Of a stretch of DNA of 64,000 nucleotides, positions 4,741 to 63,312 are shown in pieces. This DNA is from Minisyncoccota bacterium (GTDB lineage: Bacteria > Patescibacteriota > Minisyncoccia > Phycocordibacterales > JABMNX01), in contig JAPHQU010000001.1 in the NCBI GenBank assembly GCA_026195275.1, positions 77,712-141,711 on the forward strand, in the 5' to 3' direction. Positions within the stretch are counted from its first letter, which is position 1. The number at the start of each line of letters is the position of its first letter. The notes beneath the pieces were generated by a model. It had not been told where the DNA came from. It made no database searches and worked only from the letters and a program-made list of their open reading frames with translations. The translations under genes were made by a program, and so were the position numbers.

Positions 4741-4814
4741 TCCGTCCTCCAGGATTTGAACCTGGGACCGCCAAGATATAAGCTTGGTGCTCTAACCAAC
4801 TGAGCTAAGGACGG
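4741..4814 (-). tRNA. tRNA with anticodon UAU (AUA-decoding tRNA-Ile2-like); C1-G72 acceptor
   Basis: revcomp CCGTCCT-TA-GCTC-AGTTGGTTA-GAGC-A-CCAAG-CTTATAT-CTTGG-CGGTC-CCAGG-TTCAAAT-CCTGG-AGGACGG-A folds as canonical cloverleaf; anticodon loop CUUAUAU gives UAU. Confidence 0.7.
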
Positions 4815-7832: not shown

Positions 7833-8242
7833 GGGGATGATCGGCTTCGACAATGAAGATATCTTATCTATGTGCAAGGGAGCAGACCAGAACTGCTTAA
7901 AAAGCTGGAACACAATACGTGCAAAGAAATCTGCACTTGGAATGCTTTCACCTTTCCAGATGAAAAACTTCCAGTTCGCTTACGCACAAGCCTAAGCGAC
8001 CATCAGTACGTTTGACGTCCGATATGACGACACTGGTGTAACCCCAATCGGTCTAGGGTGCGCGATTGCCTCGACGCACATCTGAAACTAAGAGACTCGA
8101 CGTGATGTGATTTTGTTTGTTTCAAACACACCACGTTCAAACAGATCCTGATCTTGTATCTGGGTCAAAAAGACAAACTAGCCCTCTGTAGAATCATTTA
8201 TGAGACCTTTCTTGGACGCGGATTCGATTTCCGCCATCTCCA
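7833..8242 (+). ncRNA. ssrA: transfer-messenger RNA (tmRNA, SsrA); tag reading frame ends ...KNFQFAYAQA*
   Basis: 5' GGGGAUGAUCGGCUUCGAC matches tmRNA 5' consensus; 3' end GCGGA-UUCGAUU-UCCGC-CAUCUCC-A gives T arm and acceptor pairing with 5' GGGGAUG including a G3-U70 pair; internal ORF in frame ending GCT TAC GCA CAA GCC TAA (7978..7995); gene directly downstream of smpB. Confidence 0.8.
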
Positions 8243-8310
8243 CATTTATACCAATATGGACCAAAACAGACCGCTTTGTACCAATATGTACAGGTGGTTT
8301 TTTGGTACTC

Positions 8311-25059: not shown

Positions 25060-25389
25060 TTATTTTTCTACTTTTCCTAGTGCCACGTGGATGTGACTTG
25101 AACGTTTTTTGATTGGCGCTGCGCGACCACGTGCACGCGCTCGGAAACGAACAAATGAGAGCCCTTCGTCAACTTTGATCTCAGACACCTTGAGCTCTTC
25201 GCGTTTTACACCTTGTTGTTCAGCGTTTGAGACAGCTGACTCGATCAATTTTTTCATCGGAAGTGCCGACTTTTTTTCAAGGAATGAAAGTGCCGTAAGT
25301 GCGCGCAGAACACTCTTTCCACGAACAAGATCAGCAACGAGGCGAACCTTGCGTGGTGACTGTCGGTAATTCTTTAAAAACGCTTTCAT
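25060..25389 (-). CDS. rplV: 50S ribosomal protein L22
   Basis: start MKAFLKNYRQSPRKVRLVADLVRGKSV (ATG 25389), 13 nt after rpsS stop. Confidence 0.9.
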   Translation of the reverse strand: MKAFLKNYRQSPRKVRLVADLVRGKSVLRALTALSFLEKKSALPMKKLIESAVSNAEQQGVKREELKVSEIKVDEGLSFVRFRARARGRAAPIKKRSSHIHVALGKVEK

Positions 25390-25402
25390 GATTGAATAAA
25401 TA

Positions 25403-25735
25403 CTACTTATCAGATGCCTTTGCTGCCTTTGCTGCTGCGATTTCGGCATCCTTCTTCTTCTGTTCAAGCTCCTTCTGCATCTTACCGCCATGTCGGTGGA
25501 ACTTCTTGGTTGGTGAAAACTCACCAAGTCGGTGACCAACCATCTCATCAGTTACAAATACTTCAACATGATCACGACCATTGTGGACTCCAAAAGTGAA
25601 GCCGACCATCTCGGGAGAAATCTGGCTACGGCGCGCCCACGTCTTAATAATCCCCGCTTCTGCCGGTTTCTTACCCTCGATCTTTCGCATAAGTCGAGGC
25701 TCGACGTATGGTCCTTTCTTAATGGATCGTGCCAT
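25403..25735 (-). CDS. rpsS: 30S ribosomal protein S19 with Lys/Ala-rich C-terminal extension
   Basis: [20 protein letters not shown]...[18 protein letters not shown] typical S19. Confidence 0.9.
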
Positions 25736-25849
25736 AAAATATGTAAAGCCAAAATAATAAGCCCTCTTCGAGCTTGCAGGGTATAGTAGCCGAAATAGGT
25801 TCTAATGTCAAATTTAAAGGACGGCGCTCTCTTATCTGTAACGCCGCCC

Positions 25850-26110
25850 TTATTTTGTGTACACATAGGTACGTGGCCCATCCTCAAACCTCACTGGAAT
25901 CCAACCATTTTCACCCGATATTTGGAGGGTTCGGAGCCGCCGCACCCCTTTTGTTACACATACATCCACTCTGACCTTGTTCCCCTCGGGGTATTCCCGG
26001 ACACTGTGGAAGACGACTCGCTGAGATATAAAACTCTCAACAGGATGAATTTCATGATCAAAACCACCCCCCTGACACGAAAAGGATTCAGTTATATTGC
26101 CGATCCACAT
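25850..26110 (-). CDS. hypothetical 86-aa protein inserted between rplB and rpsS
   Basis: ATG 26110 with RBS AAGGTGG 5 nt upstream (track ORF starts at GTG 26119); same strand as operon; alternative plus-strand ORF 25805..26131 cannot be excluded. Confidence 0.35.
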   Translation of the reverse strand: MWIGNITESFSCQGGGFDHEIHPVESFISQRVVFHSVREYPEGNKVRVDVCVTKGVRRLRTLQISGENGWIPVRFEDGPRTYVYTK

Positions 26111-26175
26111 AATCGCCACCTTCTTGTATAGTGATTATCTGATTTAACAAAAGCACGAATTAACAAGAAAATCAA

Positions 26176-26222
26176 AACACCCCGCTCGTGGGAGTGGGGT
26201 GTTTCTGTTCTATCGCTTTTTG
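26176..26222 (-). terminator. intrinsic terminator overlapping rplB stop (ACACCCCGCTC-GTGG-GAGTGGGGTGT + T-rich)
   Basis: 11-bp stem; on minus RNA followed by UUUUGAUUUUCUUGUU. Confidence 0.5.
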
Positions 26223-27049
26223 CCAACTTTTCTCCGGCGAACGATGAGTGTGTTTGAATATTTCTTTGGCGTGCGAGTCTTCTGACCTTTTCCGGTCGGC
26301 TTGCCCCACTTGCTCACTGCGCGACGACGGCCGCGTCCTGCCTTTCCTTCACCACCACCATGTGGGTGATCAACTGGGTTCATTGCTGAACCACGGACCG
26401 TTGGGCGCTTACCGAGCCAGCGGTTTCGTCCCGCTTTTCCGATATTGGTGAGTTTGTGTTCCTCGTTTGAGACTTCTCCAATCGATGCCCATGCCTCGGC
26501 CGACACTTTGCGCACCTCACTTGACGGCATCTTAAGGAGCGTATAGCCCGCGTCAAGTCCAATGACCTCCGCGTAGTTTCCTGCTGAGCGGGCGAGTTTT
26601 GCACCCCCTTCAGGTTTTATCTCTATATTGTATACAAAGGTACCAACCGGGATATGCTTCATACGCATACGGTTGCCCGGCTTAATTGGCGCTCGATCAG
26701 CGATTGTGATCGTGTCCCCTACCTCAATGGACTGTGGCAATAGGACATAACGCCGCTCGCCGTCTGCAAAGAGAATGATCCCGATGAAGCCTGAACGATT
26801 TGGGTCGTACTCAATCGTCTCAACGCGCGCCGGGATGTTGCGTTTATTGTAGAGAAAATCAACATCACGAAAACGCCGCTTATGACCGCCACCTTTGTGT
26901 CGGGTTGTGATTCGTCCTGCACTGTTGCGACCAACTGAGCGCTTGCCGCCTTTTGTGAGTTTCTTGAGTGGCTTTGATCGAGTGAGTTTCTTGAGACTCA
27001 CCTGTGTCATGCCGCGCCGTCCTGGTGTTATTGGTTTAAATGATTTCAT
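26210..27049 (-). CDS. rplB: 50S ribosomal protein L2
   Basis: 279 aa, conserved L2 core. Confidence 0.9.
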   Translation of the reverse strand: MKSFKPITPGRRGMTQVSLKKLTRSKPLKKLTKGGKRSVGRNSAGRITTRHKGGGHKRRFRDVDFLYNKRNIPARVETIEYDPNRSGFIGIILFADGERRYVLLPQSIEVGDTITIADRAPIKPGNRMRMKHIPVGTFVYNIEIKPEGGAKLARSAGNYAEVIGLDAGYTLLKMPSSEVRKVSAEAWASIGEVSNEEHKLTNIGKAGRNRWLGKRPTVRGSAMNPVDHPHGGGEGKAGRGRRRAVSKWGKPTGKGQKTRTPKKYSNTLIVRRRKVGKKR

Positions 27050-27055
27050 ATTGGT

Positions 27056-27466
27056 TTATGCGATACTGATCGTGTCACCTTTCTTAAGGTAGACGTACGC
27101 TTTCTTCCCTCCGGATTTTGTTCCAAAGAGATTGCGAGATCCACGCACACGCACGCGCTTTGACGGAACTCTCGTGATGTTGATCTTCCGTGGCGTCACC
27201 TTGTAGAGTGTTTGAATCGCCTCAATAATGTCGTGCTTGGTCGCACGAGGGGAGACATCGAAAACATATACTCCTTCCTCGGCATTGAGCGTAGCTTTTT
27301 CGGTGATTCGCGGACGAGTAAGTATCGATGCGGTGTCTCGTGTGATAACTGGCGTAGCCTTGGTGTCGACCTTCTTTTCCGCTTTCGGCGTTTTCTTCTC
27401 TACTGCCGGAGCTACCGCTTCTGCCGCGTTCTCCTCACCGTCTTTTTTTATTCGAAATAATGCCAT
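27056..27466 (-). CDS. rplW: 50S ribosomal protein L23 with Lys/Ala-rich N-terminal extension
   Basis: C-terminal 95 aa match L23. Confidence 0.85.
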   Translation of the reverse strand: MALFRIKKDGEENAAEAVAPAVEKKTPKAEKKVDTKATPVITRDTASILTRPRITEKATLNAEEGVYVFDVSPRATKHDIIEAIQTLYKVTPRKINITRVPSKRVRVRGSRNLFGTKSGGKKAYVYLKKGDTISIA

Positions 27467-28776: not shown

Positions 28777-28994
28777 TGTTACGAAAAAATCCGCAATGGA
28801 CAGAGTTCCATGTGCGGAATATCTGCCATTGGTCCGCGAGGCGGACATAGCTACCCAAAATTGGGTACAGGGAGAGTATACAGGAGTGGAATAATAATGC
28901 AAGTAGAGCGCCCGCACCTCACTTGGAGGTTAAACGTTCTAAGTATTCTGATTCTCCATAAAATTTATCTAATGTGGCACTGGTGCTGACACAA

Positions 28995-29030
28995 CAAAAA
29001 ACCGCCTATATAGGCGGTTTTTTGTTGTGT
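28995..29030. terminator. perfect palindromic bidirectional terminator AAAAAACCGCCTATATAGGCGGTTTTTT right after rpsJ
   Basis: 15-bp perfect palindrome with A/T tracts both sides, 17 nt downstream of rpsJ stop. Confidence 0.65.
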
Positions 29031-29046
29031 TTCTGATAACCAGAGA

Positions 29047-29457
29047 CTACATCATCTTCACCTCAATCGAGACACCTGAAGGTAAAGATAGGTTGGTCAA
29101 CGACTCGATGACCTTCTGGTTGGGGTTGAGTATGTCGATCATCCGCTTATGGACCCGCATCTCGAATTGTTCTCGCGCGTCCTTATGTACGAACGTAGAC
29201 CGATTTACCGTGTAGCGCTTCTTTTCAGTCGGAAGCGGCACCGGTCCCACAACCTCAGCGTCGTAGCGCATCGCGGTATCGATGATCTGCTTCACCGATG
29301 TATCAAGGAGTTTGTGCTCGTAGGCGCGAACCCGGATACGAAGGCGTTCGATGCCGCCGGAAGCTTCCGGCGATTTCTTTTTTGCAGACGCTTTCTTTGT
29401 CGTTTTTTCTTTTGTCTCTTTAGTTGTCATGGTTCTTTTTTCTCTTTTGGATGACAC
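29047..29457 (-). CDS. rpsJ: 30S ribosomal protein S10 with Lys-rich N-terminal extension
   Basis: core IERLRIRVRAYEHKLLDTSVKQIIDTAMRYDAEVVGPVPLPTEKKRYTVNRSTFVHKDAREQFEMRVHKRMIDI matches S10. Confidence 0.9.
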   Translation of the reverse strand: MSSKREKRTMTTKETKEKTTKKASAKKKSPEASGGIERLRIRVRAYEHKLLDTSVKQIIDTAMRYDAEVVGPVPLPTEKKRYTVNRSTFVHKDAREQFEMRVHKRMIDILNPNQKVIESLTNLSLPSGVSIEVKMM

Positions 29458-50763: not shown

Positions 50764-50792
50764 TTGACTTGCGTGATTCTGTATGCTACACT
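50764..50792 (+). promoter_or_regulatory. sigma70-like promoter TTGACT-17-TACACT for nusA
   Basis: seen in divergent intergenic region 64 nt upstream of nusA ATG. Confidence 0.4.
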
Positions 50793-50855
50793 CCATTTAC
50801 TACTGTCCGTTACGAAACGGGCATATTTTTTTAGAAAATTGAATAACAATTGAAT

Positions 50856-60156: not shown

Positions 60157-60227
60157 TGCGGGTGGGGGTAATCGAAACCCCGACTACTGCTTGGAAGGCA
60201 GTCATTTTACCACTAAACTACACCCGC
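60157..60227 (-). tRNA. tRNA-Gly (anticodon UCC)
   Basis: revcomp GCGGGTG-TA-GTTT-AGTGGTA-AAAT-G-ACTGC-CTTCCAA-GCAGT-AGTC-GGGGT-TTCGATT-ACCCC-CACCCGC-A; perfect 7-bp acceptor, anticodon loop CUUCCAA. Confidence 0.8.
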
Positions 60228-63241: not shown

Positions 63242-63312
63242 TCGGGGAGCCGGGAATCGAACCCGGGCCGCTCGGTCCCAAACCGAGTACACTACCATTA
63301 TGCTACACCCCG
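63242..63312 (-). tRNA. tRNA-Pro (anticodon UGG), C1-G72
   Basis: revcomp CGGGGTG-TA-GCAT-AATGGTA-GTGT-A-CTCGG-TTTGGGA-CCGAG-CGGC-CCGGG-TTCGATT-CCCGG-CTCCCCG-A; C1:G72 typical of tRNA-Pro; one U-U in acceptor and G-U-rich D stem lower confidence. Confidence 0.65.

Follow-up and report, generated by a model that had tools for sequence, protein, structure and literature searches.

Few gene orders in prokaryotes are as well conserved as the adjacency of rplB and rpsS, and both operon models and the syntenic ribosomal-protein (r-protein) marker blocks of candidate phyla radiation (CPR) phylogenomics assume that the two genes are contiguous. In a 64,000-nucleotide (nt) stretch of Minisyncoccota bacterium DNA from contig JAPHQU010000001.1 (the window), these two genes of the S10 cluster stand 474 nt apart, with an open reading frame (ORF) of 86 codons between them. 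An earlier note on this DNA took the spacer to be a foreign insert that had split the operon. The locus thus raises the question of whether an acquired ORF broke the operon here, or whether the break is a property of the lineage that the ORF merely occupies. We consider it probable that the spacer is the window's version of an accessory-gene slot, present across its clade, at a transcription-unit boundary inside the S10 cluster.

The rplB-rpsS spacer in the window and in its clade

Coordinates are positions in the window, and the S10 cluster lies on its minus strand in the order tuf, rpsJ, rplC, rplD, rplW, rplB, gap, rpsS, rplV, rpsC and onward. The gap of 474 nt is present as described before (25736-26209, minus strand). 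Along the minus strand it holds a first hairpin (T1), the 86-codon ORF led by a Shine-Dalgarno (SD) sequence, a second hairpin (T2), a promoter, and a leader hairpin with a U-run that leads to rpsS. The features, in this order, are as follows.

26210..27049 (-): rplB (uL2), Pfam Ribosomal_L2_N (E 5e-30) and Ribosomal_L2_C (E 6e-50); final gene of the predicted upstream transcription unit rplC-rplD-rplW-rplB
26165..26204 (-): T1, a hairpin and U-run resembling an intrinsic terminator, beginning 5 nt past the rplB stop (TAG)
26116..26122 (-): SD-like AAGGTGG, with a 5-mer match (AGGTG), 5 nt before the ATG of the ORF
25850..26110 (-): orphan ORF, 86 amino acids (aa) from its ATG, with an alternative GTG start at 26119
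25805..26131 (+): antisense ORF, 108 aa, judged to be a codon-aligned shadow of the minus-strand ORF
25809..25851 (-): T2, a hairpin across the stop codon of the ORF, abutting the -35 box of the rpsS promoter
25783..25811 (-): sigma-70-type promoter, TTGACA-17 nt-TACTAT, 10/12 consensus matches, predicted to serve the rpsS-rplV-rpsC... unit
25736..25775 (-): rpsS leader, with a 6-bp hairpin AAGCUC-gaaga-GGGCUU (AAGCUCgaagaGGGCUU) 7 nt past the -10 box, then a U-rich run
25403..25735 (-): rpsS (uS19), Pfam Ribosomal_S19 (E 5e-32); opens the predicted downstream unit

The rplB product is 100% identical to a protein from an NCBI metagenome-assembled genome labelled 'Candidatus Pacebacteria bacterium', and the closest genome representatives are Patescibacteria of the Kaiserbacteria/Paceibacterota group. 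We collected rplB loci from GTDB species representatives and JGI metagenomes, and closer relatives (81-84% uL2 identity) via a protein database; below, WIN denotes the window's own locus, and L001, L161, L169 and the like denote loci of relatives. Among 28 related Paceibacteria loci with both genes, 24 have a spacer of 153-2258 nt, and in four more loci of the clade rpsS was not found within 0.9-3 kb downstream of rplB. In 126 loci of other bacterial phyla the median spacer is 11 nt and the maximum 143, with none above 150 nt. The premise that rplB and rpsS are normally contiguous is therefore sound for these 126 unrelated loci but fails in the window's own clade, where a check of the relatives found the two genes mostly apart. 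In a neighbour-joining tree of uL2, the wide-spacer loci form one clade with three short-spacer members nested inside; in the sister lineages beyond this clade the spacer measures 10-28 nt. Widening by hundreds of nt in this clade is confined to rplB|rpsS and, secondarily, rpsJ|rplC; all other junctions measure at most about 170 nt.

The signals that bound the spacer are also shared. The arms of T1 (26192-26204 and 26175-26187) form 12/13 pairs around a 4-nt loop and are followed by UUUUGAUUUU; its minimum free energy (MFE) is -21.7 kcal/mol (z=-6.0), and 0/200 shuffles fold equally well. The hairpin that had been proposed after rplB is thus present, although it does not overlap the rplB stop and begins 5 nt downstream of it. 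A hairpin with a U-run within 50 nt of the rplB stop occurs in 11/18 wide-gap relatives, against a background of 1.9% (P=3e-15). T2 is likewise where a second hairpin had been described, at the end of the ORF: the stem-loop at 25817-25851 includes the TAA of the ORF and has an MFE of -19.5 kcal/mol (z=-5.2; 0/200 shuffles fold as well). Its minus-strand tail, UUUAAAUUU, is an interrupted U-run, and with T-runs on both sides T2 is potentially bidirectional. The layout in which T2 abuts the -35 box is identical in L169 and L165.

On the rpsS side, a promoter of the form TTGAC-N16-18-TAnnnT precedes the gene in 25 related loci. In the promoter alignment (A2), the bases T1-T2-G3-A4-C5 (numbered within the promoter, and not to be confused with the two hairpins) and the T/A positions of the -10 box are invariant. 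Promoter and leader together are the sole block of slot DNA still alignable among the closest relatives, with 82.5% identity over 63 nt between WIN and L161. Because the split is shared by the clade and is found in slots without any cargo, we conclude that the rplB|rpsS break was inherited and was not made by the window's ORF. The physical split of the operon is borne out. The predicted signals make it very probable that the cluster is split transcriptionally as well, in which case rplB would end one transcript and rpsS would start another.

The slot behaves as a hotspot, with constant core-gene flanks, content that differs between lineages, empty sites, and widening concentrated at rplB|rpsS. 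Cargo with a Pfam match includes SAICAR synthetase (SAICAR_synt) in L001, on the opposite strand, DUF5674 in L003, prokaryotic diacylglycerol kinase (DAGK_prokar, DgkA) in L013 and DUF3298 in L087. A MazE/MazF pair (MazE+PemK; L010:3898-4493) and a MazE-like antitoxin (L011:1910-2164) lie in the slot or just downstream of it. Many other slot ORFs of the relatives match no family. Cargo on the opposite strand is found, for example, in L001, L012 and L081. When all slots were compared with one another, cargo was common only to the sister loci L087 and L088. Empty slots, found in L161 (171 nt), L089 (201 nt), L007, L083, L166 and L170, measure about 150-200 nt and hold little beyond terminator, promoter and leader.

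These comparisons bear directly on the proposal that a recently acquired cassette, comprising the ORF with its SD and terminators, split a contiguous rplB-rpsS operon. Such an event would account for the absence of the ORF from the close relative L161, for its codon usage, which is atypical for the genome, for its SD in a genome that nearly never uses one, and for the lack of a homologue in relatives at normal thresholds. However, the terminator, the promoter and the leader, and with them the split, are common to the clade and occur in empty slots too. Neither a target-site duplication nor an inverted repeat brackets the ORF, and the only repeats found are short and attributable to chance. No transposase, integrase or recombinase appears among the family matches at the spacer, and no second copy of the ORF, nor any match to it, was found in the window, in IMG/VR viral contigs or in phage and plasmid collections. 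Base composition shows no strong anomaly, with a GC content of 0.475 for the ORF, 0.447 for the gap and 0.496 for the window. A weak homologue of the ORF also occupies the same site and frame in the sister lineage L169. The claim that a foreign insert caused the split is consequently not supported, given that the split is clade-wide, exists without cargo and carries no mobile-element signature, and we regard a recent foreign insertion as unlikely.

If the spacer is instead an accessory slot, its position may explain its history. A junction that already insulates two transcription units would accept insertions without polar cost, and such insertions would be tolerated. The highly conserved flanking genes could in addition serve as homology arms for recombinational exchange of cargo. 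Insulation and homology arms together would let the site gather cargo and turn it over.

The second widened junction has a similar architecture:

28780-29046 (-): rpsJ|rplC junction, 267 nt in the window

A strong terminator follows rpsJ directly (AAAAAACCGCCUAUAUAGGCGGUUUUUUG), and a promoter-like TTGCAT-16-TATACT and leader hairpins lie in the same interval. The junction spans 860-1466 nt in the relatives L001, L003, L006, L014 and L081, and this widening points to a second variable slot.

The 86-codon reading frame and its antisense counterpart

What the window's slot contains is one 86-codon ORF on the operon strand, led by an SD and flanked by putative terminators. The ORF and its ribosome-binding site AAGGTGG are present on the operon strand as reported earlier, and our translation agrees with the previous one. 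The product (MWIGNITESFSCQ...RTYVYTK) has a mass of 9.9 kDa, a pI of 7.8 and no hydrophobic segment, and is predicted at low confidence to be all-beta.

Two explanations that dispense with this gene have to be weighed. One holds that the spacer is non-coding and carries regulatory signals only, so that the 86-aa and 108-aa ORFs are chance frames or decayed former cargo. Simulation of random 474-nt sequences gives a single ORF of 86 aa or more, on one strand or the other, with p=0.12, but ORFs of this length on both strands with only p=0.006. The minus-strand and plus-strand ORFs lie in one triplet register and are exactly codon-aligned. Opposite long ORFs aligned in this way are a classic sign of a coding frame and its shadow. 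The frequency of G at the first codon position is 0.35 in the minus-strand ORF, close to the 0.37 of genes, and 0.20 in the plus-strand ORF. That T2 sits exactly at the stop of the minus-strand ORF also speaks against a chance frame.

The other explanation takes the plus-strand ORF for the gene proper, with transcription running against that of the operon. This ORF, which had been noted before as a mutually exclusive alternative, is indeed present at 25805-26131. It is longer than its minus-strand counterpart, a weak promoter-like site lies upstream of it (25729-25758, plus strand), and the opposite-strand cargo of L001, L012 and L081 is compatible with a gene in this orientation. Yet on the plus strand T2 is itself terminator-like, with a TTATTTTGTG tail, and falls within codons 4-15 of this ORF, that is, inside its first 15 codons. 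Besides its low first-position G, its codon score is -0.03, and no homologue of it was found in Pfam, PHROGs, PADLOC, NCBIfam or the protein search. The best cross-lineage translated match, described below, lies in the minus frame. We therefore consider a plus-strand gene very improbable.

The SD provides further evidence for translation of the minus-strand frame. Core genes of the window are preceded by A/U-rich sequence and not by an SD (for example at the starts 27049, 27466, 28160, 25058 and 30696), and about 3 of 63 ORF starts in the window have a 5-mer SD (ORFs of at least 100 aa, first start), no more than expected at random. A single 5-mer match has a random rate of 6.9%, so the SD of the window's ORF taken alone could be fortuitous. 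However, four of the closest lineages have a same-strand ORF of 90-109 aa at this position (L163:3944-4246, L165:1023-1328, L167:3456-3785 and L169:3421-3693), and when WIN and these lineages are taken together, a 5-mer SD at the correct spacing precedes 4/5 same-strand slot ORFs, against 1/54 flanking core genes in relatives (Fisher p=5e-5). The slot ORFs of the close relatives also bear GGAGG.

Homology searches placed the ORF in no family. The view that its product lacks a recognisable family was confirmed by the absence of a match in Pfam, PHROGs, PADLOC, NCBIfam and PDB sequences, and a word-indexed search of 5.8 billion proteins returned no homologue. A PDB sequence match to uL15 (best E=0.76) was treated as noise. 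Three phmmer matches among 1.84 billion representatives (E 2.5e-5 to 9e-4) were rejected as repeat-inflated, because they are multi-stretch alignments to unrelated giant repeat proteins. A type II toxin-antitoxin identity of the MazEF-like kind seen in L010 and L011 was also rejected, as there is a single ORF with no Pfam or PADLOC match.

The only similarity that stands out is with the slot ORF of L169. The two products share 25% identity over 52 residues without a gap (pairwise BLASTP E=0.003; Smith-Waterman shuffle p=0.002), and the L169 ORF is the best non-self match of the window's ORF among 181 slot ORFs. In a tblastx comparison of the two slots over 36 frame pairs, the top high-scoring segment pair matches ORF frame to ORF frame, with E=0.005 against 0.35 for the antisense pair. 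WIN, L161 and L169 cluster in a tree of concatenated uL2+uS19+uL22+uS3. Since the sole detectable relative of the ORF is at the same position in L169, vertical descent with fast divergence is favoured over recent import. The ORFs of WIN and L165 have a C-terminal G-x-R-T-Y-x-Y-x-K motif in common, which is not significant (p=0.06-0.07).

The location of the ORF between two r-protein genes, in the orientation of the operon, where it could be co-expressed by read-through, together with its possible orthologue at the same site in L169, would also fit a ribosome-associated or operon-regulatory protein that is specific to the lineage and a genuine member of the S10 cluster. But almost all relatives lack the ORF or have unrelated genes in its place. 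Its slot is empty in L161, which is among the closest (171 nt), and in L170, and its conservation is 25% where the flanking r-proteins show 82-89%. The same gene conserved in relatives under purifying selection, which the earlier note named as the finding that would argue for a genuine operon member, is not seen in the strong sense, and what relatives offer is the marginal L169 match. A protein integral to the cluster is, in our judgement, very improbable.

Several results weigh against a real gene in an accessory slot. The codon score of the ORF (0.02) falls between those of native genes (0.24 +/- 0.08) and of non-coding ORFs (-0.18 +/- 0.20), and 18% of known non-coding ORFs reach it; the log-likelihood ratio between strands favours the minus strand by +2.1 nats, compared with 16.7 +/- 8.3 in native genes. 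No promoter is recognisable in the 42-nt spacer between T1 and the ORF. The phmmer search left the ORF without a significant homologue among the 1.84 billion representatives, and the single-sequence AlphaFold2 model is unusable (pLDDT 46). Pairwise similarity among the five close-lineage slot ORFs stands out for WIN and L169 alone (L163-L167, p=0.03, is not significant), and even this similarity becomes marginal once about 20 comparisons are counted, which makes the claim of a real gene provisional. Recombination may turn over the cargo, a mechanism that we only infer.

On balance, a non-coding spacer is rather unlikely: the intermediate codon score and the lack of both a significant homologue and an own promoter would fit it, but the paired open frames, the gene-like first-position composition, the recurrence of SD-led ORFs in close lineages and the position of the L169 match in the frame of the ORF do not. 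We lean towards a real, very fast-evolving and dispensable small gene, passed down in the WIN/L169 lineage and since lost from L161. In the accessory-slot reading, the ORF most likely encodes a small soluble beta-rich protein, and probably came from an ancestor common with the L169 lineage. The want of a recognisable promoter points to low-level expression by read-through of T1, and the SD would offset the missing U-rich, SD-less leader of core genes.

The rpsS promoter and leader hairpin

The rpsS ATG in the window has no SD, and the U-rich run of the leader extends up to it. Upstream of this run, the leader hairpin begins about at the predicted transcription start and resembles a terminator placed directly after a promoter. 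Taken alone, the window's hairpin is weak (-6.9 kcal/mol, z about 0). Across relatives, 22/22 aligned cases show a hairpin of 4-9 bp that starts 3-9 nt past the -10 box and has a T-rich tail behind it. These 22 sequences have 14 distinct stems with 2-4 canonical pair types per stem position, in a count anchored on the hairpin loops. Under strict criteria, 13/18 qualify against a background of 1.6% (P=3e-20). RNAalifold predicted no structure on the MAFFT alignment of the leaders, in which the hairpins are out of register, and Rfam gave no relevant match for the gap or the whole window (BTnc231 reached 29 bits, where the gathering threshold is 80).

Many relatives have a leader of just 29-47 nt. 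Alternative folds do not fit into such a length, and neither does an antiterminator or a mimic of a protein-binding site. A strong promoter-like site followed after 4-11 nt by a GC hairpin and a T-run also occurs at four further places in the window, the last two of them intergenic:

30863-30789 (-): promoter and hairpin before tuf
22206-22155 (-): promoter and hairpin after rplE
50764-50830 (+): promoter and hairpin
60534-60480 (-): promoter and hairpin

The recurrence of this layout suggests a general leader design of the organism and not a regulator specific to rpsS. Three roles are possible for the hairpin from its predicted structure and position. It may stabilise the 5' end while the unstructured U-rich stretch provides a ribosome landing site for SD-less translation; it may terminate read-through from upstream, and do so incompletely for transcripts begun at its own base; or it may act as a constitutive or factor-modulated attenuator.

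A more far-reaching version of the slot hypothesis joins these elements. Here the clade would maintain rplB|rpsS, and in second place rpsJ|rplC, as a slot dedicated to the expression of fast-evolving, SD-led small proteins, and the leader hairpin would be a new general device. Transcription of the r-protein unit that reads through the terminator would supply these proteins and couple them to ribosome synthesis; they could act, for example, in host interaction, in defence or counter-defence, or in ribosome modulation. The hairpin before rpsS, tuf and other genes would stop upstream read-through yet spare transcripts begun at its own base; alternatively, it would be a global attenuator in SD-less CPR genomes. 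We regard this whole combination as unlikely.

Several observations concern the neighbouring genes. The listed rplV ORF (25060-25548, minus strand) runs about 49 codons upstream into rpsS; by alignment, its true start is almost certainly the ATG of MKAFLKNYRQ... just past the rpsS stop, and the overlap an artefact of ORF calling. Several r-proteins of the window have Lys/Ala-rich terminal extensions. The uS10 ORF (rpsJ, 29047-29457) has 136 aa with an N-terminal tail of about 30 aa, uL23 (rplW, 27056-27466) has 136 aa with an N-terminal tail of about 40 aa, and uS19 (rpsS, 25403-25735) has 110 aa with a C-terminal tail. Lengths are similar in close relatives (in L162, 140 aa for uS10 and 144 aa for uL23). 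Elsewhere in the window, Rfam identifies a transfer-messenger RNA (tmRNA) gene at 7833-8245 (plus strand, 101 bits) and three transfer RNA (tRNA) genes, at 4741-4814, 60157-60227 and 63242-63312, all on the minus strand.

Relation to known systems

If the boundary is as the predicted signals suggest, the S10 operon would not be transcriptionally monolithic in these reduced genomes. Genes that evolve fast and are specific to a lineage, toxin-antitoxin modules and orphan small proteins among them, could then be sought at a defined place, the slot. The loci also provide a natural set of insulated terminator, promoter and leader modules for organisms without mapped transcription signals. The contrast in SD use, present at slot ORFs and missing at core genes, offers a lead on the control of translation and transcription in CPR bacteria, as does the hairpin with a U-run close to the promoter.

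Intrinsic terminators and internal promoters are known to subdivide r-protein operons. The signals found here are of the same kind, with a GC-rich hairpin and U-tract after the stop codon and consensus -35/-10 hexamers at a 17-nt spacing. In the literature searched, we found no description of such a boundary between rplB and rpsS, nor of a slot at this junction in CPR.

For the leader hairpin, the nearest parallels are the 5'-terminal stabilising stem-loops of the E. coli ompA and B. subtilis aprE/ermC leaders, and the leader attenuators of r-protein operons. Like the former, the rpsS hairpin lies within a few nt of the predicted 5' end, before a highly expressed gene. Like the latter, its stem and U-run resemble an attenuator terminator; unlike them, it sits in a leader of 29-47 nt in many relatives, its loop and stem sequences are not conserved, it has no Rfam match, and it is not specific to rpsS.

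The ORF resembles the orphan small proteins of CPR/Patescibacteria in being short, in having no detectable family and in being confined to one narrow lineage. It differs from them in its placement in a defined, recurrent slot with dedicated signals (an SD and a terminator), and in that analogous ORFs, barely or not similar to it, fill the same slot in sister lineages.

A study of the translation-gene supercluster traced 67% of rearrangement events to insertions. Our case is similar in that non-ribosomal genes have been inserted into this conserved supercluster. The events described there in detail, however, are single and clade-fixed, and they map to the rpoBC operon or to intervals that separate operons (rpoBC-str, str-S10), whereas the rplB|rpsS slot interrupts the S10 operon itself and has repeatedly changed its content.

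Hypervariable hotspots between core genes have been described as defence-island hotspots in E. coli (PMC10121019) and as hypervariable hotspots in Listeria (PMC5174086). As in those systems, a constant pair of core genes brackets unrelated accessory genes, some sites are empty, and toxin-antitoxin modules are among the cargo. In contrast to them, the slot here is bounded by two neighbours within the S10 operon, whose adjacency ranks among the most conserved known; the cargo is tiny, at 0-3 genes and 0.15-2.3 kb, with no integrases, tRNA or att sites seen; and the lineages compared are separated at the species to family level and are not strains. We conclude that the rplB|rpsS slot resembles the known core-gene hotspots, and we found no account of such a slot, inside the S10 operon and with content that turns over, in the literature searched.

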